A stretch of 64,000 bases of DNA, from contig CAZBME010000006.1 in assembly GCA_964492965.1 (NCBI GenBank), forward strand, positions 5,672 through 69,671, written 5' to 3'. Source of the DNA: an uncultured Syntrophaceae bacterium. Lineage in GTDB: Bacteria > Desulfobacterota > Syntrophia > Syntrophales > UBA8958. This document shows, one piece after another, positions 1-41,816 of the stretch (position 1 is the stretch's first letter; every line of letters begins with the position of its first letter). A program made the translations under genes and the position numbers. The notes beneath the pieces were generated by a model. That model searched no databases, had not been told where the DNA came from, and saw only the letters and a program-made list of their open reading frames with translations.

Positions 1-513
1 GGAGTCGGCCAGATCCAGGGCTGCCTGGATACCGGCGACGCCGCCGCCGATCACCAGGGTGGAACGCCGAACAGGCACCTCCAGTTCCGTACGGCCATCG
101 AGCATGGCGGCCCGGGCGACGGAGGAACGGACCAGATCCTTTGCTTTCCGTGTGGCCCCTTCCGGATCGAGGCTGTGCACCCATGAGCATTGCTCTCTGA
201 TATTGGCCATCTCCATCAGGTACGGATTGAGGCCCGCCTCGCTGACACATTTGCGGAAGGTCGGTTCATGGAGCCGCGGCGAACAGGAAGCGACGACCAC
301 GCGGTTAAGGGCGAATTCCTTGATGTCATGCTTGATCTGAACCTGACCCGGCTCGGAGCAGGTATAACCCTGGTTGATCGCATGGACGACCCCGGGCAGT
401 TCACGGGCATAGGCGGCTACGGCGGCGCAATCCACCGTGGCGCCGATATTGGAGCCGCAGTGGCAGACATAAACGCCGATGCGCACGGCGTCATGGGAAT
501 CCGATTTTTGCAT
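1..513 (-). CDS. HdrA-type heterodisulfide-reductase-like flavoprotein, first 171 codons only (gene runs off the left edge)
   Basis: My own minus-strand translation from ATG 513-511 (RBS GAGAGGA upstream) gives MQKSDSHDAVRIGVYVCHCGSNIGATVD...SCSPRLHEPTF...REQCSWVH...STLVIGGGVAGIQAALDLADS with no stop before position 1. This is a Cys-rich MvhD-like N-domain followed by a GxGxxG FAD fold. It is absent from the ORF track because it has no stop inside the window. Confidence 0.75.
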   Translation of the reverse strand, partial: MQKSDSHDAVRIGVYVCHCGSNIGATVDCAAVAAYARELPGVVHAINQGYTCSEPGQVQIKHDIKEFALNRVVVASCSPRLHEPTFRKCVSEAGLNPYLMEMANIREQCSWVHSLDPEGATRKAKDLVRSSVARAAMLDGRTELEVPVRRSTLVIGGGVAGIQAALDLADS

Positions 514-666: not shown

Positions 667-1830
667 CTACCCTCCGTACCACTCGATCTGTCCGGCCAGG
701 ACGGACATGAGGTCCCGGATTTCCAGCTTTGACGTCCCCTGTTTCAGGCGGTCTCTTATGGCGCAGGTCAGATGAATCATGCATTTCGGGCAGGCGGTGA
801 TGAGGAGGTCGGCCCCGGCGGTTCTCGCTTCCTGAAGGCGTTCCACCTGAATCTGTTTTGAATGGGCGTCGCAATTGATAAAACCGCTGTTCCCGCAGCA
901 CACGGCGCCCCGCCCATGATGTTCCATTTCCGTGAATCCCAGCTTCGGGACGAGAGCAAGGAGCTCCCGCGGACCTTTGTCACGGTTCAACATGCGGCCC
1001 AGGCGGCAGGGATCCTGAAAAGTCGCTTTGCGCTTCAGGGGCTTGAAGGCCATGCCCCCCTTGTGAACCTCTTTTTGGAGGAGATCCATGAGGAGAGTGA
1101 TCTTCAAATCGAAGCCGGGAATCACCTTGGGCATGTGTTCATGGAGGACGTAATAGCATTCGGGGCAGGAGACGATGATTTCACGAATACCGGCGCTCTT
1201 GAAGGTCTCATAGTTCAACCGGCAAAGCTGTTCGAAGTTTTTCTGGTCACCCGTCCAGAGCAGGTCATGGCCGCAGCACCGCTCGTCAGGCAGGAGGACC
1301 GGTTTGATATCCATGAAGTTCAGCAGCCGGATGCTGTCTTTGGCAATAGACAGGGTATCAACCTTGATGCCGGTGAAAAAGATGTCGAAATAGGGGGCGC
1401 AGCCCACAAAAAAGGCGGTGTCTCCCGAGGCGGCCACCTGGATGCTGTCATCGACCCAGTCCAGGCGGTTCTGTTTCAGTTCCGGGGCGGTCATCATGCG
1501 CATCCAGGAATGGATGGCGCCATCATGGGCGCGATAACCCTTCAGGCCTTTCGTTTCCGCGAGAAGCGTCCTCATTTCCAGGATAAATCCGCTGAATTCG
1601 ACGCCCGACGGGCAGCGTTCGCTGCAGATTTCGCAGGTCAGGCATTCCCAGACGGCATTTTCGATAAAGGCCTCATCCTCCCGTTCGGCTATGGCCTTGT
1701 GAGCCAGAAGCCGCGGCGAATATTCTTTCCCTGTGAGCCGCCGGGGGCAGGCAGTCGTGCATTTGCCGCATTCCAGGCATTGATACAGGGCGCGTTCGCG
1801 AATGATACGGTCCATCTTGTGCGCGTCCAT
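667..1830 (-). CDS. HdrD-like (HdrC+HdrB fusion type) iron-sulfur protein: 2x[4Fe-4S] ferredoxin motifs plus two CCG Cys-rich domains
   Basis: Part of ORF 667..2013. I place the start at the internal ATG at 1830 (RBS GGAAGGGG), 4 nt after the mvhD stop. Motifs: CLECGKCTTACP, CLTCEICSERCP, then CCGHDL...DPCRLGR and CCGNSG...ACPKCMIHL. Confidence 0.8.
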   Translation of the reverse strand: MDAHKMDRIIRERALYQCLECGKCTTACPRRLTGKEYSPRLLAHKAIAEREDEAFIENAVWECLTCEICSERCPSGVEFSGFILEMRTLLAETKGLKGYRAHDGAIHSWMRMMTAPELKQNRLDWVDDSIQVAASGDTAFFVGCAPYFDIFFTGIKVDTLSIAKDSIRLLNFMDIKPVLLPDERCCGHDLLWTGDQKNFEQLCRLNYETFKSAGIREIIVSCPECYYVLHEHMPKVIPGFDLKITLLMDLLQKEVHKGGMAFKPLKRKATFQDPCRLGRMLNRDKGPRELLALVPKLGFTEMEHHGRGAVCCGNSGFINCDAHSKQIQVERLQEARTAGADLLITACPKCMIHLTCAIRDRLKQGTSKLEIRDLMSVLAGQIEWYGG

Positions 1831-1834
1831 AGCG

Positions 1835-2266
1835 TTACGCCCCTTCCATTTCCACAACGTGTGTTTTCCGTGAAGTGACTGGCCCCAGTGATTCCATGTC
1901 GCGGGCAAAATCCCATAGGGCCTGCACAAGCTCTTCCCGTTCGTGAGCGCCGAAACTTTTTTCCACCAGCCGCTTCTGCCGGATGCCAAGTAAATGCAGA
2001 AGCTTACGGACACGTTTCACATTTTCATGGCCGACGGCGGGGCCAGGTCCGTAGCGACAATCTTCATCGGTGCATTCCAGGAGAATCACGCCGTCTGCGC
2101 CGTATTCGAAAGCCTTGAGGATCAACGCCTGATTGATGCGGCCGATACACATGACCCGGATGAGACGAAAATTGGCGGGCATGTCCATTTTGGCCATGCC
2201 TGCCGCATTGTAGCAGGCAAAGGGGCTCCAGTTGCAGCAGATGCCCAGAAGTTTTATCGGTTCCAT
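1835..2266 (-). CDS. mvhD: MvhD-type (methyl-viologen-reducing hydrogenase delta subunit family) [2Fe-2S] electron-transfer protein
   Basis: 143-aa ORF: LGICCNWSPFACYNAAG...IRVMCIGRINQALILKAFEYGADGVILLECTDEDCRYGPG, the typical MvhD pattern. The start lies 1 nt after the HdrL stop. Confidence 0.85.
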   Translation of the reverse strand: MEPIKLLGICCNWSPFACYNAAGMAKMDMPANFRLIRVMCIGRINQALILKAFEYGADGVILLECTDEDCRYGPGPAVGHENVKRVRKLLHLLGIRQKRLVEKSFGAHEREELVQALWDFARDMESLGPVTSRKTHVVEMEGA

Positions 2267-2267
2267 A

Positions 2268-5200
2268 TCAGAAAGCCTCCGTCATGGTGCAGGCCACAAT
2301 CTCTTCCAGAAGGCGGTTCGAAAAGTAGGGCATATCCATGGCTGTGACCGGGCAGCGTCCGACGCAACCTCCGCAGCCCACACAGTTATGGCGCAAAACC
2401 TCAGCCGTATAGAACCCGCGGTCATTGGGCACCAGCCGGACGGCGTCAAACGGGCAAATATCGACGCAACGGCCGCAACCCCGGCACCTTTCCGCATCTA
2501 CACGCGGGCTCAGTTCGTGATCTTTGAGGAAGGCCTCGGCCGCGGCGGTGGCCACATGTGCCGCAAGAGCTGCTCCCGCCTGGAAGGCCGTCACCCGCTT
2601 GAGTGTTCTGGGCATTACCCGGTAGAGCCCTATCTGCGGGGTATGGAAGAAGGCAAAGTCGTAACGGTAAAACTTCTTGAGGCCGAACATCCCTTCCGGG
2701 ATGGCCAGAGACAAGAGGTTGTGATCTGCCAGGCAAATGATGTCGGCCCGCCATTGGCGTCGCTGTCCGTCATCGTCAATCGTGACCTGAAAATCGCCCA
2801 TGTGTCCCTTGATGCCTTCTATCACCGCCTCCGGTACGTGAATGATGCTCTTGCCGGGGGCTCCACTGATAGGCCGCGAGCGAATTTCCTCGGGCATCTC
2901 CCGCTTGTCTTTAAGCTGGCAGCGATGCACGAGGCGGACCTTGAAGCCCTGAAGATCCAGGATATGGGCGCAGCTGAGCCCCACGTCCGATCCGCCGAGA
3001 ATGAGGATATTGCTCCCGATTTTGGTGGTCCCCCCACGCAGGGGCCCTTGGAATCGCGACCGTACGAAGGCCTCTCTGAGAAAATCCCTGGCCGTGGCGA
3101 CAAGCCGATCGTCTGAACGGTCGGTTGCCCCCAGATGGTCGCGGATATTGACGGTTTCAAACCGGCTGCGGTCCAGGCCCATGGTTTCGAACAGGTGGAT
3201 GCGGGCTCGATTCCGCTGATCGTTGCAGGAAATACACTGGAATTCAAGGGGGCAGCAGACGCAGGACGCCAGGATGACCCGTCCCAGATTCTTGCTGCGG
3301 ACGGTCTTGGCGATTTGTTCCGCCCCCCGGGGATGGCAAACGGAAAAGATAAGCTCGCTGTGCATAACCCCCGGCAGGTCCTGACCCATTTTCCGGATTC
3401 GTTCGAGGGCGGCGGCGGTGGCCATGGTGCCGTTGCATGTGCAGGTGAAAACACCGATCCGGTCATCCTGTCCGGTGTACATGACTTCAACCTCTGAGGG
3501 CTTCCCGGGTATTCTCAGGGAGGAGCACTCGGCCATTGCCCGCCCGGCTGATGCGGAACCGGCTATCAGGACATTGACGATATCCGTGGCGCGCTTGAAG
3601 TTTCCCACACGATAGACACCTTCCTGATTCAGGATGTCGCGCTGGGTGATTTCGTCTTCGCTGGCAATGATGATTGCCGGGCTGGTAACGGTAACCCGTC
3701 GGGGAGTTCGGTCATGATCAATGGCGCCGATATCCCGGCATGCGTTTTCGCATACCCGGCATTCGCAGCAGGACGCGCATTGGAGGCAGCGCCGGGCTTC
3801 GGCGATGGCCTGCTCTGCCGTGAATCCTGTTTCAACTTCTTCGAAATCCTCACGTCTTATCATCGGATCGCGCCGGGCCATCTCGGGGCGGGTGAGCCGC
3901 GGGGCGCCTTCAGGGAGGTCGAGATGTCCCGGGGTGTCATAAGGCACAATCGCTTGCGTATCCGGAGCCTTTCCCGTACCCGCGAGATAATCGATTACCC
4001 TGGCGGCGGCTCTCCGGCCCTGAGCCATGGAACCGACGACCGTGTCGGGACCCGTCACCACATCGCCGGCGGCAAACACGCCGGGTTGATCCGTATCATG
4101 GTCCTGGTTAACCAGGACACGACCGGCTTTATCCGATTTAAAATGACCTTTGATGCCGGTCTGCTTCCAATGAGGTTCCTGGCCGATGGCCACGATGATG
4201 TGATCGACGGGAAACAGGAACTTTGAATTCTTGACGGGTTCCGGGCGGCGGCGCCCGCTCTCGTCGGGTTTCCCCATTTTCATGCGGATCAGTTCCAGGG
4301 CTTCCACCTTGCCATGCTTGGCCTGCACGGAAGCCGGAGCCACCCGGAATTCGATCCGGATGCCCTCTTCCTCGGCTTCTTGTATCTCCGAAAGACGGGC
4401 CGGCATATCGCCCCGTTCACGGCGGTAGCAGATGGTCACATCTTTGGCCCCCAGGCGGATGGCTGCACGGGCGGCGTCGATGGCGGAATTCCCTCCGCCG
4501 ATTACGGCGACCTGCCCCGCAAGTTTCAGCGCCTTTCCCGTATGGAGAGCCGTGAGCATATCGACGGCGCCGAGAACGCCTTTGGCGTCTTCGCCGGGGA
4601 TGTCCAGGAGAAGATCCCGGTGTGCTCCCGTGCAGAGAATAACGGCTTGAAACCCCTCGTTGAACAGATCCTGAAGATTCCGGACCAAAGTGTTCGTACG
4701 GATCTCCACCCCGGCATCGACGATGGCTCGGATTTCCATGTCGAGGATGGCTCTGGGCAAACGGAAGGCGTTGATGCCCATGCGGAGCATGCCTCCCGCT
4801 TCAGGGTGGGCCTCGAAAATGGTGACGGGGAAACCGGCCCGGTTAAGGTAATGAGCGGCGGCCAGTCCTGCCGGACCGGCGCCGATCACGGCGACACGTT
4901 TCGTTTGCTGCGGTTTTTTGACGGGGGAAAAGCGGGGCGGGTGCTGTTCAAGCTCCCGATCGGCCAGAAAACGTTTCACCGAGCAAATGGCAACCGGTTC
5001 GTCTACGTTCATGCGACGGCAGGTCTCTTCGCAGGGATGGTGGCAGACGCGCCCGCAGATGCCCGGAAGGGGATTGTCCCCGCGGACAACCTCCAGGGCT
5101 TCATCAAAGCGCGATGCCGCCGTCAGTGCCATATACGCCTGAACGTTTATGCCCAGTGGACAGGCTGTCCGGCAGGGGGCCGGTTGGCGTTTATCCATTT

Positions 5201-5639
5201 CCAGTGCCCGGGAAGGACAGTAGGGCGGTGTCCGGAGCAGAGGAGGGTGGGCCGTATCCTGCAAGGGACAAACCTCCATGCAGCGCCCACAACCGGTACA
5301 AAGATCATAGTCCACATAGGCCGGGTTCTGAACGGTGACGACCCGATACCCTTCCGGCCCCTTTTCAATGGATTCGACCCGTGCATGGGTCATGGCCGTC
5401 ACCAGAGGGTGGCGGGTAACGCGAAGGTAAAGGGGGCGAAACTGGAAATTGAGGTCCGCCGGCCATTCCGTGAAACTTTCACGGCCGCTGGGCATTTCCA
5501 GAAAATGGGGGGCTTTGGTCACCCACAGCAGGGGCAGGCCGGACTGGGCCAGATCCTGAGCTACCTTGAGGGCGCCGTATCCGGACCCCACAAGGAGGAT
5601 CGCCTTGCTCTCTGGGTTGGGTAGAGGCGCCTTTTTCAT
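2268..5639 (-). CDS. Large HdrA-like flavo-iron-sulfur protein fused to a GltD/NfnB-like NAD(P)H oxidoreductase module (HdrL type)
   Basis: 1123-aa ORF. It has an N-terminal FAD fold (ILLVGSGYGALKVAQDL), several CxxCxxCxxxCP clusters, and an internal RVAVIGAGPAGLAAAHYLNRAGFPVTIFE...GGML and VAVIGGGNSAIDAARAA (GltD-like). The C-terminus is an HdrA-like part ending with a 2x[4Fe-4S] ferredoxin. The ATG at 5639 overlaps the stop of the upstream gene (ATGA). Confidence 0.8.
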   Translation of the reverse strand: MKKAPLPNPESKAILLVGSGYGALKVAQDLAQSGLPLLWVTKAPHFLEMPSGRESFTEWPADLNFQFRPLYLRVTRHPLVTAMTHARVESIEKGPEGYRVVTVQNPAYVDYDLCTGCGRCMEVCPLQDTAHPPLLRTPPYCPSRALEMDKRQPAPCRTACPLGINVQAYMALTAASRFDEALEVVRGDNPLPGICGRVCHHPCEETCRRMNVDEPVAICSVKRFLADRELEQHPPRFSPVKKPQQTKRVAVIGAGPAGLAAAHYLNRAGFPVTIFEAHPEAGGMLRMGINAFRLPRAILDMEIRAIVDAGVEIRTNTLVRNLQDLFNEGFQAVILCTGAHRDLLLDIPGEDAKGVLGAVDMLTALHTGKALKLAGQVAVIGGGNSAIDAARAAIRLGAKDVTICYRRERGDMPARLSEIQEAEEEGIRIEFRVAPASVQAKHGKVEALELIRMKMGKPDESGRRRPEPVKNSKFLFPVDHIIVAIGQEPHWKQTGIKGHFKSDKAGRVLVNQDHDTDQPGVFAAGDVVTGPDTVVGSMAQGRRAAARVIDYLAGTGKAPDTQAIVPYDTPGHLDLPEGAPRLTRPEMARRDPMIRREDFEEVETGFTAEQAIAEARRCLQCASCCECRVCENACRDIGAIDHDRTPRRVTVTSPAIIIASEDEITQRDILNQEGVYRVGNFKRATDIVNVLIAGSASAGRAMAECSSLRIPGKPSEVEVMYTGQDDRIGVFTCTCNGTMATAAALERIRKMGQDLPGVMHSELIFSVCHPRGAEQIAKTVRSKNLGRVILASCVCCPLEFQCISCNDQRNRARIHLFETMGLDRSRFETVNIRDHLGATDRSDDRLVATARDFLREAFVRSRFQGPLRGGTTKIGSNILILGGSDVGLSCAHILDLQGFKVRLVHRCQLKDKREMPEEIRSRPISGAPGKSIIHVPEAVIEGIKGHMGDFQVTIDDDGQRRQWRADIICLADHNLLSLAIPEGMFGLKKFYRYDFAFFHTPQIGLYRVMPRTLKRVTAFQAGAALAAHVATAAAEAFLKDHELSPRVDAERCRGCGRCVDICPFDAVRLVPNDRGFYTAEVLRHNCVGCGGCVGRCPVTAMDMPYFSNRLLEEIVACTMTEAF

Positions 5640-6226
5640 TTCAGATTACCGGAATGCTCCTTCTTTGAGCGGCCTTTGAGAATGGCCTCGCCATATTCAA
5701 GACCCCGGTCAAAGGCCTGGGCATTACTTTCCTGGGTTGCCGCAGGGACGGAGGATAGCACCGCCTTGCGGAGCGCATCTGCACAAACAAGGTTCTCCAC
5801 GGCGGCAAGAAACCCAAGCATAACAATATTCGCCATCATTTTATTGCCCAACTCCTCGGCAAAGCGTGTGGCGGGGATGTTGTAGGTCTTCCATCCCGTA
5901 TCCGTTTTTTGTGTCCGGACAAGATTCGTTTCCCATATCAGCGTGCCGCCCGGGCGGAGACTTTGGACGTTTTTCGTATAGGCTTCCTGACTCATGCACA
6001 CGAGGACTTCCGGTTCTTCAACGCAGGGATAGAGAACTTCTTCCGGGCTGATGATCACTTGGCTGGAGCATGAGCCACCCCGGGCTTCCGGGCCATAGTT
6101 CTGCGTCATCGTGGCGTGTTTGCCGTCATGTAAAGTCGCGGCTTTTCCCAGGATATCTCCGGCCATGACAATGCCCTGGCCTCCAAAACCCGTGATTAAA
6201 ACATGCCTTTCTTGATTCATCTGCAT
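5636..6226 (-). CDS. 2-oxoacid:ferredoxin oxidoreductase, gamma subunit
   Basis: Part of ORF 5636..6283. The start is taken at ATG 6226 (alternative 6220), just after the beta-subunit stop at 6238. The sequence HVLITGFGGQGIVMAGDILGKAA is typical of the gamma subunit. Confidence 0.85.
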   Translation of the reverse strand: MQMNQERHVLITGFGGQGIVMAGDILGKAATLHDGKHATMTQNYGPEARGGSCSSQVIISPEEVLYPCVEEPEVLVCMSQEAYTKNVQSLRPGGTLIWETNLVRTQKTDTGWKTYNIPATRFAEELGNKMMANIVMLGFLAAVENLVCADALRKAVLSSVPAATQESNAQAFDRGLEYGEAILKGRSKKEHSGNLK

Positions 6227-6237
6227 TGACGTCACCG

Positions 6238-7128
6238 TTATCCTGCATCTTCCCGTGGTGCTTTTCGATCCGGGTGGGGCCACTGGGCAATCTGACGCCG
6301 CCTCAATGCCTGGTAATTATCCCAAAAGGTGGGCCGCTCGATATCGACAAACTTGCCCACCACGATTTCATCGTCGAAATTCAAGGCGGCGTCTTTCGGG
6401 TCAATATCATTACGGATCACCGAGCGTTCGTGATAGAACTTGAGGGTGTCAAGAGCGCTCCCCATGCGATTCCGCCTTCCGAAAGAGGAGGGGCAGGGCG
6501 TCAGGACCTCAATAAAGCTGAAGCCCTTTTTCTGCATGGCTTCCGTAATGGCATTCGTGAGAAGCCGGATATGCAGGGCCGTCCAGCGGGCGACATACAC
6601 AGCGCCGCAAGCAGCGGCCAGACTACAGAAGTTGAAGGGTTCCTCCGGAGATCCGTCGACGCTGGTCGTGGTCTTGGCGCCGAGGGGCGTGCTGGGGGCC
6701 TGCTGGCCTCCCGTCATGCCGTAGTTTAAATTATTTACGCAAACGACCGTAAGGTCCATGTTACGCCTGGCCGCATGAATGAAATGGTTCCCGCCGATGG
6801 CGAAGAGATCGCCGTCTCCGGAGACGACCATGACTTTTGTGTCCGGTTTGGCCAGTTTCAGGCCTGTCGCAAAGGGAAGGGCCCGGCCGTGGGTCGTATG
6901 AAAGGAATCGAGCTTGATATAACCTGCCATGCGCCCTGTACAGCCGATTCCCGACACCATGGCCATCTGGTTGAGATCCCGGCCGGATTTCTGAATGGCA
7001 GCAATGACGCCGCTGAAGACGGTGCCGATGCCGCAGCCCGGACACCATATATGGGGGATCCTCTCGATCCGGAGAAGATCATCCATGGGATGAGGGGCGG
7101 CATGATGAGTTTCTTTTCGTTTCGTCAT
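6238..7128 (-). CDS. 2-oxoacid:ferredoxin oxidoreductase, beta (TPP-binding) subunit
   Basis: 296 aa with WCPGCGIG, GIGCTGR and VVSGDGDLFAIGGNH (TPP/Mg motif). Confidence 0.9.
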   Translation of the reverse strand: MTKRKETHHAAPHPMDDLLRIERIPHIWCPGCGIGTVFSGVIAAIQKSGRDLNQMAMVSGIGCTGRMAGYIKLDSFHTTHGRALPFATGLKLAKPDTKVMVVSGDGDLFAIGGNHFIHAARRNMDLTVVCVNNLNYGMTGGQQAPSTPLGAKTTTSVDGSPEEPFNFCSLAAACGAVYVARWTALHIRLLTNAITEAMQKKGFSFIEVLTPCPSSFGRRNRMGSALDTLKFYHERSVIRNDIDPKDAALNFDDEIVVGKFVDIERPTFWDNYQALRRRQIAQWPHPDRKAPREDAG

Positions 7129-7130
7129 GC

Positions 7131-8285
7131 TTATTCCTTTATTGCTTTCTCGATAGCCCCGAGGATTCTGGCCGGATTAATGATAGCCCCGCCGAAATGG
7201 GAAACCAGCGTGACGGGACAGGCGCCTCCCGCACACCGCTCCAATTCGAGGACCATCTGGCCGGCGTTGATTTCCGGCATAATGAGCGCCCGGACATGGG
7301 GCGCGACGGACCGGATCAGGTCTTCAGGGAAAGGCCAGACCGTTTCGAGTTTGATGAGCCCTGCCCGGATGCCCCTTGCCCGTGCTTCGCGGACAGCTTG
7401 ACGGGCGGCCCTCACACTGATGCCGTAAGCGACTACGACCACCTCGGCATCATCCAGGAATACATTCTCTGTCCGGACGATCCGGTCGCGGTTGGCGCGA
7501 ACCTTCCGTACAATGCGTTCGACCATCTGCGCCTGCGCCTCGGGATTCATGGCGGGATAGCCGCGCTCATCGTGGGTCAGCCCCGTAATGTGGATATGAT
7601 AACCGTCGCCGCAGTTGGCCATGGGCGCCACACCATCAGGATCCGCCCGGTAAGGCAGAAATTCCTCCGGCGGCACGGAGGGCTTGCGGCGGCTGACGAT
7701 TTCAATTTTATCTTCCGTCGGAATCACAACCCGTTCGTTCATATGGCCCACAACCTCGTCGGCCATGATAATCACGGGGAGGCGATATTGTTCGCTCAGG
7801 TTGAAGGCCCGGATGGTGAAGTCGAACATCTCCTGGGGGCTGGAGGGAGACAGGGCGATGATTTCGTAATGGCCGTGCGAGCCCCAGCGGGCCTGCATCA
7901 TGTCTCCCTGAGCCACCAGTGTCGGCAGCCCCGTGCTCGGTCCCGCCCGCTGCACATTGCAGATCACGCAAGGCGTCTCCGTACAGAGGCCCAAGCCGAT
8001 ATTCTCCATCATGAGGGAAAAGCCGGGCCCTGAGGTGCTGGTCATGGACTTGACGCCTCCCCAGCTGGCTCCCAGGATGGCGGCCATGGAGGCCAGTTCG
8101 TCTTCCATCTGAATATAGATGCCTCCCAGCTGTGGGAGCCTTCGTGACATGCGTTCTGCGACTTCCGTGGCCGGTGTGATGGGATACCCTGCAAAGAAAC
8201 GGCATCCGACCGCCAGCGCCCCTTCGCAACAGGCATGGTCACCGTTCATGAAATGGGTTCCCGTCAGCACAGCTTTGTTCGCCAC
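7131..8285 (-). CDS. 2-oxoacid:ferredoxin oxidoreductase, alpha subunit
   Basis: 384 aa with MNGDHACCEGALAVGCRFFAGYPITPATE...TSGPGFSLMMENIG. It ends 2 nt before the beta-subunit start. Confidence 0.9.
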   Translation of the reverse strand: MANKAVLTGTHFMNGDHACCEGALAVGCRFFAGYPITPATEVAERMSRRLPQLGGIYIQMEDELASMAAILGASWGGVKSMTSTSGPGFSLMMENIGLGLCTETPCVICNVQRAGPSTGLPTLVAQGDMMQARWGSHGHYEIIALSPSSPQEMFDFTIRAFNLSEQYRLPVIIMADEVVGHMNERVVIPTEDKIEIVSRRKPSVPPEEFLPYRADPDGVAPMANCGDGYHIHITGLTHDERGYPAMNPEAQAQMVERIVRKVRANRDRIVRTENVFLDDAEVVVVAYGISVRAARQAVREARARGIRAGLIKLETVWPFPEDLIRSVAPHVRALIMPEINAGQMVLELERCAGGACPVTLVSHFGGAIINPARILGAIEKAIKE

Positions 8286-8289
8286 GATG

Positions 8290-8574
8290 TTACTCCTTTA
8301 CCTGTTTCCCGCCGGTTCCGTTGCCATCGACGCTGTATATGGCGAATTCGGGGCACAATACCTCGCAGAAATGGCAGTTTGCGCATTTAGAGGCATTCAC
8401 GACGTCCGGGGGATGATATCCTTTTTTATTAAAGTCCGAAGACAGGCGCAATACTTCCCGTGGGCAGTAAGCGATGCAGAATCCGCAACCCTTGCAGCGA
8501 TCGTCTATAATGACGACCTTCCCCAGGGTGGTCTGCGTTTCTGCCAGATCGAGTGGTTTTCTCCAGTATTTCAT
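8290..8574 (-). CDS. 2-oxoacid:ferredoxin oxidoreductase, delta subunit (2x[4Fe-4S] ferredoxin)
   Basis: 94 aa with CKGCGFCIAYCP and CANCHFCEVLCP. It is the first gene of a delta-alpha-beta-gamma order, as in kor/oorDABC-type operons. Substrate specificity cannot be deduced by eye. Confidence 0.85.
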   Translation of the reverse strand: MKYWRKPLDLAETQTTLGKVVIIDDRCKGCGFCIAYCPREVLRLSSDFNKKGYHPPDVVNASKCANCHFCEVLCPEFAIYSVDGNGTGGKQVKE

Positions 8575-9015
8575 CGATTCTTATCAACAAATAAATAACA
8601 TTAAACGATTCCAGCGAACCCGCAAGATAACCTGTGGGTCCCATGACCAACATTATTGAGCCGGGGGATTTTAGGAGTGCGAAGGCCCCTATTGCTAAAC
8701 ACGCCAAATCCTGTTGATTTCGAGTGCAGTAAGCTGGCTCGGACATTACCAAGCTTGCCTGGTGGTAATTCCATGAGGGCTTATAAGATGTAGGCAACGG
8801 TGTCAAGAAAAATGTTTTTATTTTAAAATACTATTACTTCCAGCCACTTCGTTGGTAGGCCCTTTGTCTGATCTTTCAAAATCCTTGCACCGGAATGAGA
8901 ATAGGAGTACAAATCTGTATCTTCCGTTTCCGCTTGGGAACCCTAGAGAGTTTAAGTGCCCCTTTTTAATTCACGGGCGCCATTCAACCCATACCTTTAA
9001 ATTTAGGAGGATAAT

Positions 9016-10339: not shown

Positions 10340-11119
10340 TTACTCCTTTTTCAGGAAAATACCCGTCGGATCGCATTCATCCCGGAGTATCCTGATCAGT
10401 TCAGGATCCGGGCGCTCTGTTTCATGAACGTCGGCGGCCACCTTGAGATTCCAGCCCGTATTCTCCCTGATCTGGTCGATCGTGACGCCCGGGTGGTAAG
10501 ATGCCAGATACATTTCCCTGGTGTCGGAATCGAAGCGCAGGATGGCCAGAGTGGAAATGACGACACTGGGGCCGTTGCCGACGAAGCCGTATTGCTCCCT
10601 TTCCTTGCCCCCGCTGAAATAGCCCGGCGTTGTGATGAAATCGACCTTTCCCGGGAAGCGTTGTTTCTGGTGGAGCATCATTACAATCGTTCTTTTGCAA
10701 CAAGCCCCGATATCATTCGAACCGCCACTGCCGGCAAACCGCACGGTCGGCTCATAATAATCGCCGATGACATGGGTATTGAGATTCCCGTATTTGTCGA
10801 TCTGGGCGCCGCCCAGGAATCCGACGTCGATATCACCGGCATGCACGATGCCCAGTCCCTCCATGAGGCCGCCCTGCATGGCGGAGCCGGGAACAAGGAC
10901 GGAATCCGCGACGGAGAAGGGCGTGACGATCGGTTTGCAGTCGATGGCGCCCGATTCATAAATGGCGATGATATCGGGGGCATGAGTTTTCTGGGCCAGG
11001 AAGGCCCCGAGAAGGGGGAGGCCGGTTCCGACGATGACTTTCTCTCCGTCTTTGATTTCTCTTGCCGCGGCCACGGCCATCATTTCCTGAAGGGTGAAGT
11101 CTGTATAGTTGCTAGTCAT
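10340..11119 (-). CDS. Family-I CoA-transferase, subunit B (glutaconate/3-oxoacid CoA-transferase type)
   Basis: 259 aa with DFTLQEMMAVAAAREIKDGEKVIVGTGLP...FAGSGGSNDIG. It sits directly downstream of the A subunit. Confidence 0.85.
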   Translation of the reverse strand: MTSNYTDFTLQEMMAVAAAREIKDGEKVIVGTGLPLLGAFLAQKTHAPDIIAIYESGAIDCKPIVTPFSVADSVLVPGSAMQGGLMEGLGIVHAGDIDVGFLGGAQIDKYGNLNTHVIGDYYEPTVRFAGSGGSNDIGACCKRTIVMMLHQKQRFPGKVDFITTPGYFSGGKEREQYGFVGNGPSVVISTLAILRFDSDTREMYLASYHPGVTIDQIRENTGWNLKVAADVHETERPDPELIRILRDECDPTGIFLKKE

Positions 11120-11131
11120 GATGTCCTCCTT

Positions 11132-12076
11132 TTAGAAGCCATAATTGACGGACGATGAGCTAATGTCTCTCGCTTTCAGATCGAGAAATTTCTGCATCCC
11201 GAAGGTATTGACATATTTCTCCAGATATTGCGCCCTGTCGGAAACGCCATAAATCCACTCGTCCATAAACTTCTGCCACCCTTCCACCGTCTTGGATTCC
11301 TGGATGTACTTGAAGATGAAGGGCCGGTCCACGTCATAATGGCCCTGACAGTTCTTGGGGTGGGCTCCGAATGGCGCCGGGACGACCGCCACCACTTTAT
11401 AACCCGGCAGGATCGTGCGGTTCGGGTCTCTCCCGATGGCTTCACGGGTGGCCAACTCCTCGCAGGAAATGATGACCTTCTTGCAGGCCCTCATGCTCCA
11501 GGGGGCGTCGCCCAGGATGCCCCACATTTGGGCGTTTCCTTCCTCATCGGCCCGCTGGACGTGGAATATTCCGATATCGGGTTGCAAAGCCGGCACCAGG
11601 ACGTGTTCGTATCCCGAACCAAAGGGATCCTTCATCAATTTTGCCTTGTCATCACCCATCCAGGCGGAATATTTGAGCATGTCGGAGCCCTTCATGGAAT
11701 TGATGGGGATATAGGGGATGCCCAGCGATCCCGCCAAAAAACGGGCCATCATGGCGAAATTCGTGTAATCCTCCATCTCGACCTTATGGGGGAACCCCTT
11801 CTCCATGGCCCGCCGGAAGCAATAACAGGGGCCGAAAACCTCCATCCATACGTAGGAGGCGATAATCCGGTCAACGCAACCCGCGCCGATCAGTTGATCT
11901 GCCTGCTCGTTAAAGCTGGCCTGGCAGATCGTCAGATGCTTTTTGTTCTGCCTGATGATCTCGTGGTTGAGTACATAGGAGATACTGTGGAAAAACCCTC
12001 CGCTGGCGACGGTCATGCCGTCTTCAACAAAACCTGATACCGCTTCCCGAGCTGTCATCACTTTTGATGCTTTCAT
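11132..12076 (-). CDS. Family-I CoA-transferase, subunit A (glutaconate CoA-transferase GctA-like)
   Basis: 314 aa with KVMTAREAVSGFVEDGMTVASGGF...LAGSLGIPYIPINSMKGSD, a GctA-like size and pattern. Confidence 0.85.
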   Translation of the reverse strand: MKASKVMTAREAVSGFVEDGMTVASGGFFHSISYVLNHEIIRQNKKHLTICQASFNEQADQLIGAGCVDRIIASYVWMEVFGPCYCFRRAMEKGFPHKVEMEDYTNFAMMARFLAGSLGIPYIPINSMKGSDMLKYSAWMGDDKAKLMKDPFGSGYEHVLVPALQPDIGIFHVQRADEEGNAQMWGILGDAPWSMRACKKVIISCEELATREAIGRDPNRTILPGYKVVAVVPAPFGAHPKNCQGHYDVDRPFIFKYIQESKTVEGWQKFMDEWIYGVSDRAQYLEKYVNTFGMQKFLDLKARDISSSSVNYGF

Positions 12077-12599
12077 GATCGATACCCTCCTTATCGATGG
12101 GACTTATTCCAATTCCAAAGCAAAAACCGATGGGCGTTCAGATACAGACTCTTATAACGTATTGAATTTTGTTGAGCGATGATTTGCGCTCAAGGCATTG
12201 ATCAGAGATCTCAGGTAAAAAAACATTGTTATTAAAAAAAACTTGACGAAATTTAAGCAACTTGAGTATATGTAAGGGAAATAGGGGGTGTTCCATAAAT
12301 TAGTGACTATTTAATAAAGCACCTTTTACATTTTCATGCAGAGCCAATCGATGGATAAACCTACCAGTGCTAAGGTGAAAAGTCAAAACAAAGCTTTTGG
12401 GCTGATCCCTACAAATCATAGACCGGTTTTACGCTAGTGTAACATGTTCCAGTAGTCCTGTGCGGTTGAATTAAGCCGGCATATTACATTTTCACACGTT
12501 CACTGAATCCGTTAGCTTTATTGCCCCAAGTTTGAGGTCGGGGCTGAAACTAATTGTTTGCATGGTATTCATCATCCAAATCAAAGGAGGAGGTAAGAA

Positions 12600-13961
12600 A
12601 TGGGAAAAAGTCAACTGGGTGCTATGGAGCGTTTTGCTTTAGCTATTGAGAAGTATGTGCCCGATGCTATTACGTCGGCGGTCGTCATGATTATTATCTT
12701 GTTTGTCTTTGCCACGGGCATCGGGGTGCCCGTAGAAAAGACGGGAGCGGCCTATTACAAGGGATTCTGGATGCTCCTGGCCTTTACGATGCAGATGACT
12801 CTGATCATTACCCTGAGCTCCGTCTTCGGCCAGTCGCCCCTCTTCCGGAAGGTCGTTCTGATGCTGTCCGGCATTCCCAAGTCGCCATTTCAAGTGATTG
12901 CCATGGCATCCATTTTAACGGCTGTTCTGGCCTATTTTTATTGGGGTTTGGCCATTACCCTGGGGCCGGTCATCGCTGTCTACTTCTGCGGCGAGGCCGA
13001 GAAGAAGGGAATCAAGGTCGATCTTATGGTCTGCCTGGCCACCGTTTTTGCCGCCCATTCGATCTGGCAGTACGGTTTATCCTCCAGTGGGCCACTGCTG
13101 ATGGCTACGCCCGGGCATTTCCTGGAAAAGACCGTAGGAATACTGCCCCTGTCCACGACCATCTGGTCTCCGGCAGCCATCATTATGACAATCGGCTTTA
13201 TCGTTTTGCTTTTGATTGTGTCTCGGTTGCTCTTTCCCAAGCATCCCAAGACGATTGCCAATTATCCCGATGCCTACAAACTGGTTGAGGACCACGCGGC
13301 CGAGGCGGCCGCCATGGCGGAGGAAAAGGACCTGACCTTTTCCCAGAAGGTGGAGCGAAGCCATATCATGGGTTATATCATATGCCTTGGTCTCGTCTAC
13401 TGGCTTTATCAGCATTATTTCGTCAAGAATCTGAGTCTGGATCTGAATGCCTTGAACGCCACCTTCCTGCTGCTTTGCTTCCTCCTGCACCGGAACATCT
13501 ACCGGTTCCAGGAGGCCTTGAAGGAAGGGATCCGGTCGTCCTGGTCCGTCGTCGTGATCTATCACATGTACGCCTTTGCGGCGGGAATCCTCCAGTTTAC
13601 GCCCGCTGGCGAGTACATCGCCAAATTCCTGGGCGAGATCTCGACACCTTATACGTTCCCGCTGCTAATGGCCATATCCGGAGCGATCATTGCCATTTTC
13701 GTCCCCTCCAGTGGCGGGCAGTGGGTTATCCAGGGGTTCGTCACCTCCAAGGCGGCTGCCGCAACCGGCGTTTCATTCCAGAGAGGTCTTATGGCCCTCG
13801 GTATCGGTGACCAGATAGGCAACCTGGTCTCGCCCTTCTGGTATGTCATTGTTGCCGGTATCGCCCGGGTCGATTTCCGCAAGTTCTTTGGGTACGGTAT
13901 GGTCTTTGCCCTTCTGTGGTTTGTCTGGGGGATCATCTGCTTCACCTTTCTCCCCTGTTGA
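12600..13961 (+). CDS. atoE: Short-chain fatty acid transporter (AtoE family)
   Basis: 453 aa, polytopic membrane protein. The N-terminus MERFALAIEKYVPDAITSAVVMIIILFV and the size match the AtoE family. A strong RBS (AAAGGAGGAGG) precedes the ATG. Confidence 0.8.
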   Translation: MGKSQLGAMERFALAIEKYVPDAITSAVVMIIILFVFATGIGVPVEKTGAAYYKGFWMLLAFTMQMTLIITLSSVFGQSPLFRKVVLMLSGIPKSPFQVIAMASILTAVLAYFYWGLAITLGPVIAVYFCGEAEKKGIKVDLMVCLATVFAAHSIWQYGLSSSGPLLMATPGHFLEKTVGILPLSTTIWSPAAIIMTIGFIVLLLIVSRLLFPKHPKTIANYPDAYKLVEDHAAEAAAMAEEKDLTFSQKVERSHIMGYIICLGLVYWLYQHYFVKNLSLDLNALNATFLLLCFLLHRNIYRFQEALKEGIRSSWSVVVIYHMYAFAAGILQFTPAGEYIAKFLGEISTPYTFPLLMAISGAIIAIFVPSSGGQWVIQGFVTSKAAAATGVSFQRGLMALGIGDQIGNLVSPFWYVIVAGIARVDFRKFFGYGMVFALLWFVWGIICFTFLPC

Positions 13962-14041
13962 TGCGGTTTAGATGAAAATCCCTCTACCTCCTTTAGCAAA
14001 GGGGGCAAGTCAATCACGGGGGGCGAGTCATGAGATAACGA

Positions 14042-14079
14042 AGAAGGCGGGAGGGGCCCCAGTCCCTTTCCCGCCTTCT
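14042..14079 (+). terminator. Terminator-like GC-rich hairpin after atoE (no T-tract)
   Basis: AGAAGGCGGGA (14042-14052) pairs perfectly with TCCCGCCTTCT (14069-14079) around a 16-nt loop. The downstream sequence CAGAGAG is not T-rich. Confidence 0.35.
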
Positions 14080-14105
14080 CAGAGAGATCAGGAAGAGGTT
14101 AAAAA

Positions 14106-14870
14106 ATGAAGCTGCAAGGAAAAGTAGCGATTGTGACCGGTGCCAGCAAAGGCATCGGCAAGGGGATCGCCATCCGGTACGCCCAGGAAGGGGCGACAGT
14201 GGTACTGGCCAGCCGTTCCGTGGATTTGCTGGAAGTGATCGCCGCCGATATTCGGAAAGAGGGCGGCAAGGCCCTACCCCTGCCCCTGGATGTCATGCGG
14301 TACGAAAGCATTGAAGGGGTCGTTGCCAGAACGGTGTCCGAATTCGGCCGCCTGGATATCATGGTGAACAATGCGGGCATTTCGATGGCCAAACCATCTG
14401 AAGAACTGGCCATCCAGGATTGGCAGCGGGCTCTGGATACGGACCTGTCCGGGGTTTTCTACGGCTGCCAGTGTGCGGCCAGACAGATGTTTCGTCAGGC
14501 GGAAGGGGGGAGTATTATCAACGTCACCTCCGTATACGGCCTGGTGGCCGCGCCGGGACGGCTTGCCTATTGCGCCAGCAAGGCGGCGGCAAACATGCTG
14601 ACAAAAGTTTTGGCCATCGAATGGGCAAAAAAGAAGGTGAGGGTGAACGCCATCGCCCCCGGTTATATCCGCACGGAACTGGTCCAGGGGGTCATTGACA
14701 GCGGCATGCTGCAGCCCGAAGTGATCGAGAAACGCACGCCTTTGGGGCGGATTGGCGAGGTTTCGGAACTTCTGGGCATCGCCGTTCACATGGCATGTGA
14801 AGAATCGTCTTTCATGACCGGGTCGATCGTCAACGTCGACGGCGGCTGGGAGGCTTACGGCTATTTGTAG
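14106..14870 (+). CDS. Short-chain dehydrogenase/reductase (FabG-like)
   Basis: 254 aa with GKVAIVTGASKGIGKGIA, NNAG and YCASKAA (the TGxxxGxG and YxxxK SDR motifs). Confidence 0.9.
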   Translation: MKLQGKVAIVTGASKGIGKGIAIRYAQEGATVVLASRSVDLLEVIAADIRKEGGKALPLPLDVMRYESIEGVVARTVSEFGRLDIMVNNAGISMAKPSEELAIQDWQRALDTDLSGVFYGCQCAARQMFRQAEGGSIINVTSVYGLVAAPGRLAYCASKAAANMLTKVLAIEWAKKKVRVNAIAPGYIRTELVQGVIDSGMLQPEVIEKRTPLGRIGEVSELLGIAVHMACEESSFMTGSIVNVDGGWEAYGYL

Positions 14871-14986
14871 GGCAATGATGAAGATTTTCGGCATTCCGCA
14901 AAATCTCCCCCCCACTCTTTAGAAAAGTGGGGAGCTGTGATGCTTAAGGCAATGACATTGAGATAATAAATAGGAGCGAATGAAGA

Positions 14987-15910
14987 ATGAACGAGAAAGT
15001 GATTATCACGGCGGCCATTACCGGAGGTATTCATACCCCCACCATGTCACCCTATCTTCCCGTGACACCCAAACAGATTGCCGATGATGCCGTAAAGGCC
15101 TGCGAGGCCGGCGCTGCCGTCTGCCATATCCATGCCCGCAATCCTGAAACGGGGCAACCGACGGCGGATGTCCATATCATCAAGGAGATCATCACCAGTA
15201 TCAAGAGCCGTTGTAATGTCGTGATCTGTATCACCACCGGCGGCGGACTGGGGATGACCGTGGAACAGCGCGTTGCGCCCGTTACGCTCTACAAGCCGGA
15301 ACTTGCTTCTCTGAATGCGGGTTCCACAAACTTTGCCCTCTTTCCGATGATTCCTAAATATAAGAAATGGAAGTTTGAATGGGAAAAACAGTACCTAGCC
15401 ATGTCGGAAGATTTCATTTTTGCCAATACCTTCAAATCCATGCGTGAATTTTGTACGGTTTTTAACAAAATGGGGACCAAGCCGGAATTTGAAATCTACG
15501 ATTCAGGCATGGTGAATAATGTTGCTTTCATGATCCAGGCCGGTTACATCAAGAAGCCCGTTTACATCCAATTTGTCATGGGGGTGCTGGGCGGGATCAC
15601 CCCCAGTGCCGAGAACCTTATGTTTCTCGTCGATTATGCCCGCAGGCAGATCGGGGATTTTGTTTTCTCCGTATGCGTGGCCGGTCGGGCTCAGTTTCCT
15701 ATCTGTACGCAATCGCTTCTCATCGGCGGAAATTGCCGTGTCGGTCTGGAGGACAATCTCTATCTTGAAAAAGGCGAAATGGCTAAAAGTAATGCCGATC
15801 AGGTGGCGAAGATAGTGCGGATCGCCAAAGAGTTGGGTGTTGAGCCGGCATCCCCCGATGATGCCAGAAATATGCTGGGACTCAAAGGGATCCGTAAAGT
15901 CAATTACTGA
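14987..15910 (+). CDS. Beta-keto acid cleavage enzyme (BKACE/DUF849; 3-keto-5-aminohexanoate cleavage enzyme family)
   Basis: 307 aa with VIITAAITGGIHTPTMSPYLPVTPKQIADDAVKACEAGAAVCHIHARNPETGQP, the characteristic BKACE N-terminus. Confidence 0.85.
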   Translation: MNEKVIITAAITGGIHTPTMSPYLPVTPKQIADDAVKACEAGAAVCHIHARNPETGQPTADVHIIKEIITSIKSRCNVVICITTGGGLGMTVEQRVAPVTLYKPELASLNAGSTNFALFPMIPKYKKWKFEWEKQYLAMSEDFIFANTFKSMREFCTVFNKMGTKPEFEIYDSGMVNNVAFMIQAGYIKKPVYIQFVMGVLGGITPSAENLMFLVDYARRQIGDFVFSVCVAGRAQFPICTQSLLIGGNCRVGLEDNLYLEKGEMAKSNADQVAKIVRIAKELGVEPASPDDARNMLGLKGIRKVNY

Positions 15911-16100
15911 CGACCTTGTAAAGCGTGAAATTCTGCATTTCTTCTAGGACTGATTCCTATGAAGGATAAAGGAGGCGTCCCACTTCGGAATCGGACGGCA
16001 TCCGATTGTCTGCAAAGAGCCTTTCATACATATTATCATCGAACCTGCCCGGTAAGAGAAGACGGATGCAGGTCGATTTTATGTTTTGGAGGTAACGGCC

Positions 16101-16289
16101 ATGAAGAAAATGGAGACGCGAGACGGCGGAAATTTTAACGGTATCGCCGGCAATAGTGTGGGAGATCTTAATTTAACGCCCGTTGATATTTTAAAGAAGT
16201 ATGGATCACGAGTGGTCGAACGGTTTGCCGTAAACCTTTACGACTACACCAGGACCGATTACCGCGTCAACTTGACCGCTGCGCTGTAA
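16101..16289 (+). CDS. Hypothetical small protein (62 aa)
   Basis: ATG 16101 lies 7 nt after a GGAGGT RBS. The track ORF starts at TTG 16086. I recognise no family, and coding status rests only on the RBS, the ORF and its operon position. Confidence 0.35.
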   Translation: MKKMETRDGGNFNGIAGNSVGDLNLTPVDILKKYGSRVVERFAVNLYDYTRTDYRVNLTAAL

Positions 16290-16437
16290 GAAACGTACCG
16301 ATCTTCAAATAAATGCCGGCATTTTGATTTGACGGCATCTACGTTTCGAGACTATACTCGCATTGCAGATGGCCTTGTTACGGCTTCATCGTTGATCCAT
16401 TAAAATAATCATGTTCTAATGATTCAAGGGGGAGCAA

Positions 16438-17358: not shown

Positions 17359-17394
17359 AAAAGTCCATCCGCACTTTAATCTTCCTGGAAGTGA

Positions 17395-17435
17395 GCATAC
17401 GTCATTTTTGACGGGTATGCCTTGTTTCAATTTGA
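17395..17435 (+). terminator. Rho-independent terminator candidate after the OCD-family gene
   Basis: GCATACGTCA-TTTT-TGACG(GG)TATGC forms a 10-bp stem with a 2-nt bulge at 17395-17420. It is followed by CTTGTTTCAATTTG. Confidence 0.5.
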
Positions 17436-17581
17436 TAATAAGTACAGTTCACGATTGGCAACAGGCATCGTCACCATGCCACATATTTTGCAGTCTATAC
17501 TTTCTTGGCATACCAGACCATGCTTCTTATACTACTTTCCATCAGGAGCAAGTTCTTCTCAAGATAAATCATACAGCGTTA

Positions 17582-17595
17582 TGTGAAATTTCACA
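17582..17595. promoter_or_regulatory. Perfect 14-bp palindrome TGTGA-AATT-TCACA (CRP/FNR-family-like half sites)
   Basis: Read directly at 17582-17595, about 135 bp upstream of the TPR gene. The half sites equal the CRP consensus, but the spacer is 4 nt rather than 6 nt. About four perfect 14-bp palindromes are expected by chance in 64 kb. Confidence 0.2.
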
Positions 17596-24305: not shown

Positions 24306-24322
24306 TATTAGCAAACTCCGCT

Positions 24323-41793: not shown

Positions 41794-41816
41794 GGGGAAC
41801 TCCTGCTTCCTTCATC

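Follow-up and report, generated by a model that had tools for sequence, protein, structure and literature searches.

What does a 2-oxoacid:ferredoxin oxidoreductase (OFOR) do when its genes run without a break into those of an HdrL-MvhD-HdrD-like electron-transfer module? The arrangement occurs in DNA from an uncultured Syntrophaceae bacterium (GenBank assembly GCA_964492965.1, contig CAZBME010000006.1, positions 5,672 to 69,671 of the forward strand; this whole stretch of 64,000 nucleotides is the window referred to throughout). There, at least eight minus-strand genes encode the four OFOR subunits, a 1123-residue flavoprotein (HdrL), an MvhD protein, an HdrD-like protein and an HdrA. An earlier note on this DNA, made from its letters and open reading frames (ORFs), had suggested a dedicated complex joining 2-oxoacid chemistry, NAD(P)H and a substrate of the CCG domains. 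This is still the best reading, because the adjacency of the OFOR and hdrL genes is conserved and the flavin adenine dinucleotide (FAD) and NADPH motifs of HdrL are invariant. Our judgement leans modestly towards the eight genes encoding one flavin-based bifurcating or confurcating complex, in which the OFOR, NADP(H) and a disulfide would be coupled and electrons would be wired internally to the clusters of the OFOR delta subunit.

The gene cluster and its conservation in relatives

Seven minus-strand genes, running from 8574 down to 667, were recovered from the ORF list, the translations and direct reading of the junctions. These genes, the partial gene that follows them and the region upstream are as follows.

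8575..9015, no strand: intergenic region of 441 nt upstream of the cluster, facing a divergent OmpA-family gene; presumed promoter and leader
8290..8574, minus strand: OFOR delta, 94 aa, a 2x[4Fe-4S] ferredoxin (Fer4_7 and Fer4 in Pfam, a Fer4 dicluster)
7131..8285, minus strand: OFOR alpha, 384 aa, with POR_N and PFOR_II (Pfam); GTG start
6238..7128, minus strand: OFOR beta, 296 aa, with TPP_enzyme_C (Pfam); predicted to bind thiamine pyrophosphate (TPP) and a [4Fe-4S] cluster
5636..6226, minus strand: OFOR gamma, 196 aa, with PF01558 POR (Pfam)
2268..5639, minus strand: HdrL, 1123 aa, with Fer4_20, Pyr_redox_2 (GltD/NfnB-like), HdrA-like segments and a C-terminal 2x[4Fe-4S] domain
1835..2266, minus strand: MvhD, 143 aa, a predicted [2Fe-2S] electron-transfer subunit (PF02662 FlpD, 3.9e-33)
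667..1830, minus strand: HdrD-like protein, 387 aa, with an HdrC-like 2x[4Fe-4S] domain (Fer4) and two HdrB-like CCG domains
1..513, minus strand: HdrA, the eighth gene, N-terminal 171 codons of an HdrA2-type protein, cut by the window start

The junctions from delta to the HdrD-like gene measure, in order, 4, 2, 11, -4, 1 and 4 nt. The gamma stop and the HdrL start share an ATGA at 5636-5639 (the -4 nt junction), the mvhD start lies 1 nt past the HdrL stop, and the GTG start of alpha is preceded by an AAAGGAG ribosome-binding site. The gene order and distances given in the earlier note, including the ATGA overlap, were reproduced exactly, and Pfam and NCBIfam profiles bear out all seven of its gene assignments. 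Its extent for the operon, seven genes ending at 667, was too short: an eighth minus-strand gene begins at 513 (MQKSDSHDAVRIGVYVCHCGSNIG...) with a canonical HdrA N-terminus and leaves the window, and an HdrA gene follows HdrD in 63/65 relatives, giving an operon of at least eight genes. The HdrD-HdrA gap of 153 nt has no terminator-like fold. In a consensus scan, promoter-like and terminator-like sites inside the operon showed no excess over shuffled sequence, and no promoter was listed on the operon strand within 8575..9015. A regulatory RNA or riboswitch was considered and rejected, as the 441-nt leader and the 153-nt gap have neither an Rfam match nor an unusual fold.

For close relatives, 14 HdrL homologues were aligned and one genome per species was scanned, yielding 78 loci with HdrL 50-76% identical, in which neighbouring genes were called by tblastn with the window proteins. 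The loci belong to Syntrophales, Desulfarculales (including the cultured Desulfocarbo indianensis), Adiutricales and other Thermodesulfobacteriota, and some to metagenome-assembled genomes (MAGs) labelled Gaiellales/Thermoleophilia (Actinobacteria), Spirochaetota and Poribacteria. The four OFOR genes stand directly upstream of HdrL on the same strand wherever there is enough upstream sequence (57/57 loci), and MvhD, HdrD and HdrA stand directly downstream in 63/65. Of the two exceptions, L016 truly lacks HdrA and the other is an artefact of the threshold; the order OFOR-HdrL-MvhD-HdrD-HdrA is nearly invariant among the relatives. Their gamma/HdrL junction is -4 nt in 18 and +2 nt in 9 of 30 measurable loci, the alpha/beta junction -4 nt in 30/38, the HdrL/MvhD junction +1 nt in 35/67 and the MvhD/HdrD junction -4 nt in 21/27. 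The delta-to-alpha and HdrD-to-HdrA junctions are looser (medians of 58 nt and 55 nt, respectively).

Distant HdrL proteins were sought in a library clustered at 50% identity, in which the whole orthologous group is one representative. About ten more clusters contain full-length, collinear HdrL at 31-38% identity, and six were examined. OFOR genes precede HdrL and MvhD follows it in five of these (P0242, P0243, P0246, P0258 and P0259; 34-37% identical), with HdrD and a split HdrA coming after wherever the contig extends. The adjacency of OFOR and hdrL genes, which the earlier note had proposed to check in related genomes, is conserved in every close relative with sufficient sequence and in 5/6 distant HdrL clusters (31-37% identity), and an HdrL of the ~1100-aa architecture nearly always goes with OFOR linkage. 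Such an arrangement lies far outside what chance would produce.

Clustering of all flanking ORFs revealed no further conserved neighbour, the most widespread flanking family occurring in 11/77 loci. DsrC, ferredoxin and succinyl-CoA synthetase were sought in the same flanks, and no family was present in more than 11 of the 77. Since no flanking family is conserved, the eight genes constitute a self-contained module.

Cofactor sites and subunit types

The anatomy of HdrL was derived from comparison with the sequences of solved structures and from a fold search using an AlphaFold (AF2) model, which has a mean predicted local distance difference test score (pLDDT) of 77. The GltD/NfnB-like core, which the earlier note had recognised as an NAD(P)H module, occupies residues 148-637 (Pfam, NCBIfam). 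For residues 154-631, the closest solved relatives in the alignments are the bifurcating subunits of NfnABC and StnABC (9bov_A, 9n5u_A, 8oh5_C), with 37-40% identity to 8oh5_C and 9n5u_A in the fold comparison; NfnB proper (5jca_L, 4ylf_B) comes next. Outside the core, HdrL residues 11-127 align with HdrA 143-259, residues 721-906 with the HdrA N-terminal domain and residues 1011-1108 with the HdrA C-terminal ferredoxin domain. The NfnB-like core dominated the fold search with the full HdrL model, which added nothing on the HdrA-like parts. HdrL is an HdrA-derived scaffold with an NfnB/StnC-type NADPH/FAD module embedded in it. Publicly annotated as 'FAD-dependent oxidoreductase' or 'glutamate synthase beta subunit-like', the protein combines an HdrA-like part with a GltD-like NAD(P)H domain and is followed by mvhD. 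HdrL was defined as such a large soluble fusion followed by mvhD in the Desulfobacterium autotrophicum genome paper (Strittmatter et al., 2009; PMC2702500).

Across 59 homologues, the FAD motif GxGxxG at 253-258 (G253, G255, G258), the NADPH motif GGGNSA at 381-386 (G381, G383, N384) and the cluster ligands C156, C160, C195, C199, C203 and C207 of two N-terminal [4Fe-4S] sites are invariant. The YRR that follows the NADPH motif in both NfnB and StnC is present. Arg293, also invariant in the 59 homologues, aligns with Arg187 of T. maritima NfnB (4ylf_B), which hydrogen-bonds N5 of the bifurcating FAD (b-FAD) (PMC6405883). The FAD- and NAD(P)H-binding residues of the 1123-residue protein, whose possible loss had been named as a point to check by alignment, are thus retained, and HdrL is predicted from these motifs to carry an intact Nfn/Stn-type bifurcating NADPH/FAD module.

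The OFOR has the full set of four subunits: an alpha subunit with POR_N, domain II and a YPITP motif, a beta subunit with a TPP domain and four Cys, a gamma and a delta. Alpha matches PF01855 (2.9e-69) and PF17147 (7.5e-20) and scores 582 bits against NCBIfam NF006412, above the cut-off of 411; its YPITP motif is present and its translation holds FFAGYPITPATE. Beta matches PF02775 (2.6e-37), has the GDG...N motif (its translation holds VVSGDGDLFAIGGNH) and retains Cys29, 32, 63 and 212, four Cys for the proximal [4Fe-4S] cluster that are 100% conserved in orthologues. Gamma matches PF01558 (4.8e-38) and reaches 195 bits against NF006323, under the cut-off of 235. Delta contains two CxxCxxCxxxCP motifs (Cys 27, 30, 33, 37, 64, 67, 70 and 74, 100% conserved in orthologues).

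The closest chain in the PDB to alpha is 1yd7, the alpha subunit of the P. furiosus 2-keto acid:ferredoxin oxidoreductase (5e-124, ~58% identity). Against chains of the 2-oxoglutarate:ferredoxin oxidoreductase (OGOR) type, alpha gives 3e-79 (8ys5_A, 2-oxoglutarate synthase alpha) and 1e-60 (6n2n_A), and against the alpha of pyruvate:ferredoxin oxidoreductase (PFOR), 1e-15 (9bt4_B). The closest chain to beta is 8ys5_C, an OGOR beta subunit (1.5e-66), compared with 4e-12 for PFOR beta. The best NCBIfam matches are of OGOR type (NF042987, NF007206, NF007207), all under their specific cut-offs: alpha scores 376 against 579, beta 256 against 364, and delta 68 against 125 (OGOR_delta, 67.6 bits, its best NCBIfam match). 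By similarity, the OFOR would be of the 2-oxoglutarate type. Because the subunits are closest to OGOR/KOR-type enzymes, 2-oxoglutarate is a plausible substrate and is the most likely one. The same substrate had been put forward earlier from the nitrogen-assimilation neighbourhood, an argument that has turned out weak, with those genes ~13 kb away and the flanks not conserved.

The remaining subunits retain their predicted cluster ligands as well. In MvhD, Cys11, 18, 40, 65 and 70 are 100% conserved in orthologues. The HdrD-like protein is matched twice by PF02754 and combines two C-Xn-CC-Xn-C-X2-C CCG domains with an HdrC-type 2x[4Fe-4S] domain. Across 57 orthologues, conservation is 98-100% both for the ferredoxin Cys, eight in number, and for the two CCG Cys sets (C144/C185/C186/C222/C225 and C275/C311/C312/C347/C350). 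The CCG pattern is that of HdrB for two noncubane [4Fe-4S] clusters, and the protein therefore bears the hallmarks of a working disulfide reductase site. NF045663 ('diclust_near_Sec', a 759-aa family in which an NfnB-like flavoprotein is fused to a CCG/dicluster domain) partly matches both HdrL and HdrD; the two kinds of module thus occur elsewhere as one polypeptide, which fits joint working.

In relatives, the gene that comes after HdrD shares 60-88% identity with the HdrA fragment of the window. This fragment ends before the codon of interest below, and the features of the full-length protein are taken from relatives. In one of these, L001, HdrA (15039-17480) has ~813 aa with a fused MvhD domain and an in-frame TGA at codon 203. 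It is collinear with positions 1-775 of the 777 of NF040770 (HdrA2, HdrA with fused MvhD), and its halves, read through the TGA, together reach 1174 bits, where the cut-off is 1100. The TGA stands within a strictly conserved DCSI-TGA-ILGPKM in almost all of ~50 readable relative loci and is followed by ~610 more in-frame codons that include the fused MvhD domain. Being in frame and conserved, it constitutes a selenocysteine signature. The HdrA of the relatives is accordingly read as a putative HdrA2-type selenoprotein, which gene callers divide into two.

The proposed complex and its alternatives

In the complex we propose, an OGOR/KOR-type OFOR would form the low-potential catalytic end (2-oxoacid + CoA <-> acyl-CoA + CO2 + 2 e-, ~-500 mV), with 2-oxoglutarate as the most likely 2-oxoacid. 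HdrL would supply an NADP(H) site on an Nfn/Stn-type bifurcating FAD together with seven or eight Fe-S clusters, the two MvhD modules (one free, one fused to HdrA) would serve as [2Fe-2S] connectors, and the selenocysteine-containing HdrA2-type flavoprotein would be the second candidate bifurcating flavin. HdrD, in which HdrC and HdrB are fused and two noncubane-cluster motifs occur, would form the high-potential end and act on some disulfide/thiol couple. Low-potential electrons would move between the flavins and the clusters of the OFOR delta subunit within the complex, not via free ferredoxin. The net reaction, with a presumed stoichiometry and written for either direction, would be 2 NADPH + acyl-CoA + CO2 + RSSR <-> 2 NADP+ + 2-oxoacid + CoA + 2 RSH.

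The midpoint between the 2-oxoacid couple (~-500 mV) and a disulfide (~-150 mV) lies near the potential of NAD(P)H, so the energetics fit bifurcation or confurcation; methanogenic Hdr shows the same energetic pattern. The Fdh-Hdr-Fmd complex (7bkb), which is among the solved-structure matches of HdrL, provides a precedent for direct delivery of low-potential electrons to a CO2-fixing enzyme. A narrower proposal, which we put forward tentatively and as less likely than not, is that an Nfn/Hdr flavin hybrid of this kind drives reductive carboxylation of succinyl-CoA (2-oxoglutarate synthesis) with NADPH, with disulfide reduction as the cost and without free low-potential ferredoxin.

Several observations weigh against a single complex or its details. 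Both HdrA-like Rossmann folds of HdrL lack, in the translation, the usual acidic residue after beta-2, which makes FAD binding at these folds uncertain, and the last 85 C-terminal residues of the HdrL model are of low confidence. Among the OFOR subunits, alpha alone passes a curated NCBIfam cut-off, that of a generic model, and the OorA- and OorB-specific models are not reached. The L016 relative lacks HdrA, and the most distant HdrL examined (P0253, 31%) has MvhD and no visible OFOR or HdrD. A search of the flanks at 77 loci gave no thiol carrier that is conserved, either within the cluster or next to it. In Syntrophobacter fumaroxidans, an HdrAL/POR cluster that resembles this one by its published description was undetected in proteomes under all tested conditions (PMC5947623). 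Finally, the operon structure fits a physical complex and co-expressed enzymes linked by free ferredoxin alike.

The eight genes could, in that last case, encode two physically separate enzymes, an ordinary OFOR and a soluble HdrL-MvhD-HdrD-HdrA ferredoxin:NADP+/disulfide oxidoreductase working in the manner of Nfn or Flx-Hdr, coupled through the ferredoxin pool. Delta has the standard 2x[4Fe-4S] form that, in other four-subunit OFORs, feeds free ferredoxin. Free ferredoxin is also what all of the Nfn, Stn and Hdr relatives use, by their PDB descriptions and established biochemistry, and the looser delta-to-alpha and HdrD-to-HdrA junctions of the relatives also point this way. The adjacency, however, is essentially invariant down to ~35% HdrL identity, the gamma/HdrL boundary between the two supposed enzymes is the tightest conserved junction, and no ferredoxin gene is conserved in the cluster among the 77 loci. 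That five of the six sampled ~1100-aa HdrL clusters adjoin an OFOR goes beyond what a shared ferredoxin pool requires. We regard separate enzymes as somewhat unlikely. That the OFOR and Hdr genes are neighbours by shared ancestry alone, with no functional meaning, is scarcely credible: the linkage is kept across MAGs labelled with several phyla and to ~35% HdrL identity, the start and stop codons overlap at the gamma/HdrL boundary, and the flanks on both sides are unconserved.

A different doubt concerns what a complex would be for. It might be catabolic and not specific for 2-oxoglutarate, converting amino-acid-derived 2-oxoacids or pyruvate to acyl-CoA for substrate-level phosphorylation while electrons are confurcated into NADPH, which would avoid ferredoxin-dependent release of H2 or formate. 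OFOR and ADP-forming acyl-CoA synthetase are the classic pair of archaeal peptide fermentation. In one distant locus (L082:1384-4835, HdrL 35% identical), the module is immediately preceded on its own strand by genes for enoyl-CoA hydratase, ADP-forming acyl-CoA synthetase and an acetyltransferase, a hint that this organism uses the acyl-CoA product oxidatively and gains ATP from it. The closest solved alpha comes from the peptide-fermenting Pyrococcus furiosus, and the S. fumaroxidans authors named the enzyme POR (PMC5947623). Neighbours in the window include CoA-transferases, a short-chain fatty-acid transporter, a beta-keto-acid cleavage enzyme (BKACE) and an acyl-CoA dehydrogenase, but these are not conserved in relatives, and alpha and beta are far nearer to OGOR-type chains than to PFOR chains. 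In 5-6 Syntrophales loci (e.g. L057:3438-5029), moreover, the genes for an ammonium transporter (amtB) and PII (glnK) share the strand of the operon and lie ~2 kb upstream, with a divergent aldehyde dehydrogenase gene in between; this placement is a weak, lineage-restricted hint of a link to 2-oxoglutarate and nitrogen. The amtB-glnK and L082 hints, both weak, point in opposite directions, and we consider the catabolic role rather improbable.

Flavin-based electron bifurcation allows strict anaerobes to reach potentials below that of NAD(P)H. To our knowledge, the bifurcating flavin of each Hdr- or Nfn-type complex characterised so far works together with a particular donor or acceptor module. 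If the single-complex reading is correct, a hard-wired OFOR would add the formation or cleavage of a 2-oxoacid carbon-carbon bond to these modules, and the unit would be the first to combine Nfn-type and Hdr-type flavins and the first with a TPP-dependent 2-oxoacid oxidoreductase built into a flavin-based bifurcating machine. It would offer a testable answer to how syntrophs and other energy-starved anaerobes keep ferredoxin-level chemistry in balance with the NADPH pool, and, should it work in reductive carboxylation, would explain 2-oxoacid synthesis at ~-500 mV in syntrophs and in complete oxidisers that use the Wood-Ljungdahl pathway. With the module present in dozens of genomes, including MAGs labelled with several phyla and the cultured Desulfocarbo, one characterisation would annotate many.

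Genomic surroundings and known systems

The nitrogen-assimilation genes of the window (split glutamate-synthase-like genes, a type III glutamine synthetase, two carbamoyl-phosphate synthetases, a glutamate dehydrogenase and an NrpR-like regulator) start at 21.6 kb, ~13 kb from the operon. Between them lie, on mixed strands, the OmpA-family gene, the CoA-transferases, the short-chain fatty-acid transporter and a cluster with BKACE, ornithine cyclodeaminase and acyl-CoA dehydrogenase genes. As evidence on the OFOR substrate, the nitrogen neighbourhood was ruled out by this distance, by the unrelated operons in between and by the unconserved flanks in relatives.

The nitrogen-assimilation region is unusually redundant. 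It contains two separate sets of split archaeal-type glutamate-synthase-like genes (21666-27210 and 39460-43451, both minus strand), the second including a 777-aa protein (39460-41793) that fuses GXGXG, GltD/NfnB-like flavoprotein and ferredoxin domains. Type III glutamine synthetase is encoded at 37220-39529 and large subunits of carbamoyl-phosphate synthetase at 31081-34302 and 59522-62749. An NrpR-family regulator (PF01995 and HTH_12; 50741-51778, minus strand) stands beside the glutamate dehydrogenase gene (49337-50692, minus strand); NrpR is the 2-oxoglutarate-sensing nitrogen repressor of methanogenic archaea.

Other parts of the window are also of interest. Positions 10340-21566 encode CoA-transferase subunits, an AtoE-like short-chain fatty-acid transporter, three short-chain dehydrogenases/reductases, BKACE, an ornithine cyclodeaminase/mu-crystallin protein and an acyl-CoA dehydrogenase, and may be an amino-acid or keto-acid fermentation island, one that is not conserved beside the module in relatives. 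The G+C content is 0.47 at 18001-22000, against 0.55-0.59 nearby, with GC skew up to +0.25 at 18-20 kb; this segment could be acquired DNA. At 54856-57705 (minus strand), a 949-aa protein fuses an aldehyde:ferredoxin oxidoreductase (AFOR_N and AFOR_C) to an iron-containing alcohol dehydrogenase (Fe-ADH and ADH_Fe_C) and could reduce an acid to the aldehyde and on to the alcohol in one polypeptide.

Among known systems, the module is a widespread, strictly conserved and uncharacterised variant within the Hdr- and Nfn-type bifurcating complexes. Whether the linkage had been described before was left open in the earlier note. In the searchable literature we found one mention of an OFOR-linked Hdr cluster, and an earlier description elsewhere is possible: a single sentence on S. 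fumaroxidans, without characterisation, names HdrAL/POR (Sfum_0012-0018) as an Hdr cluster associated with pyruvate:ferredoxin oxidoreductase (PMC5947623), likened here to the present cluster by its published description. The literature search returned no biochemical characterisation of any HdrL complex.

The HdrL-MvhD modules of sulfate reducers and syntrophs (D. autotrophicum HdrL1-3, S. fumaroxidans HdrABC/HdrL) share with the present one an HdrA/GltD-like fusion followed by mvhD. HdrL1 of D. autotrophicum adjoins dsrABC, and other HdrLs adjoin fdh or hdrABC genes (PMC2702500, PMC5947623), whereas the partner set here is fixed and consists of the OFOR, HdrD and the selenoprotein HdrA2.

With NfnAB, NfnABC and StnABC, HdrL shares the motifs for FAD and NADPH, the arginine at N5 and both N-terminal [4Fe-4S] sites. 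Unlike those systems, the operon has no NfnA partner ([2Fe-2S] and FAD) and no HydBC-like NADH module, and neither is conserved in the flanks; it therefore does not encode an Nfn/Stn complex, although its core flavin module is of that type. Here that module sits inside HdrA-derived domains and its partners are MvhD, HdrD, HdrA and the OFOR.

Class II benzoyl-CoA reductase, Bam[(BC)2DEFGHI]2, has an HdrD-like BamD, an HdrA-like selenoprotein BamE and an MvhD-like BamF, which use bifurcation to link a catalytic module of very low potential with NAD(P)+. In Bam, the catalytic module is BamBC, of the tungsten-dependent aldehyde:ferredoxin oxidoreductase (AOR) family, and the NADH module is NuoEFG-like. 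In contrast, neither the present operon nor the conserved flanks contain a BamB or AOR-family gene, and the AOR-family gene at 54856-57705 is unlinked. The OorDABC/KorDABC-type 2-oxoglutarate:ferredoxin oxidoreductases (8ys5, 1yd7) have the same delta-alpha-beta-gamma set and motifs and give the best family and PDB matches. They stand alone and use free ferredoxin, whereas the present gamma gene runs into the start of a gene for an Hdr/Nfn flavoprotein.

The methanogenic HdrABC-MvhAGD and Fdh-Hdr-Fmd complexes (5odc, 7bkb) likewise bring together an HdrA-type flavoprotein, an MvhD connector and HdrB/C-type CCG and ferredoxin domains. The same logic of three modules (donor, bifurcating flavin, disulfide reductase) would apply, and the low-potential CO2-handling enzyme would attach directly. 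The donor here is an NADPH module in place of a hydrogenase or formate dehydrogenase, and HdrB and HdrC are fused as HdrD. The host is bacterial, with a best named homologue that points to Syntrophales, and coenzymes M and B are not expected in it, so CoM-S-S-CoB is an unlikely substrate of HdrD. The low-potential enzyme is a TPP-dependent OFOR, where the methanogenic complex has formylmethanofuran dehydrogenase.

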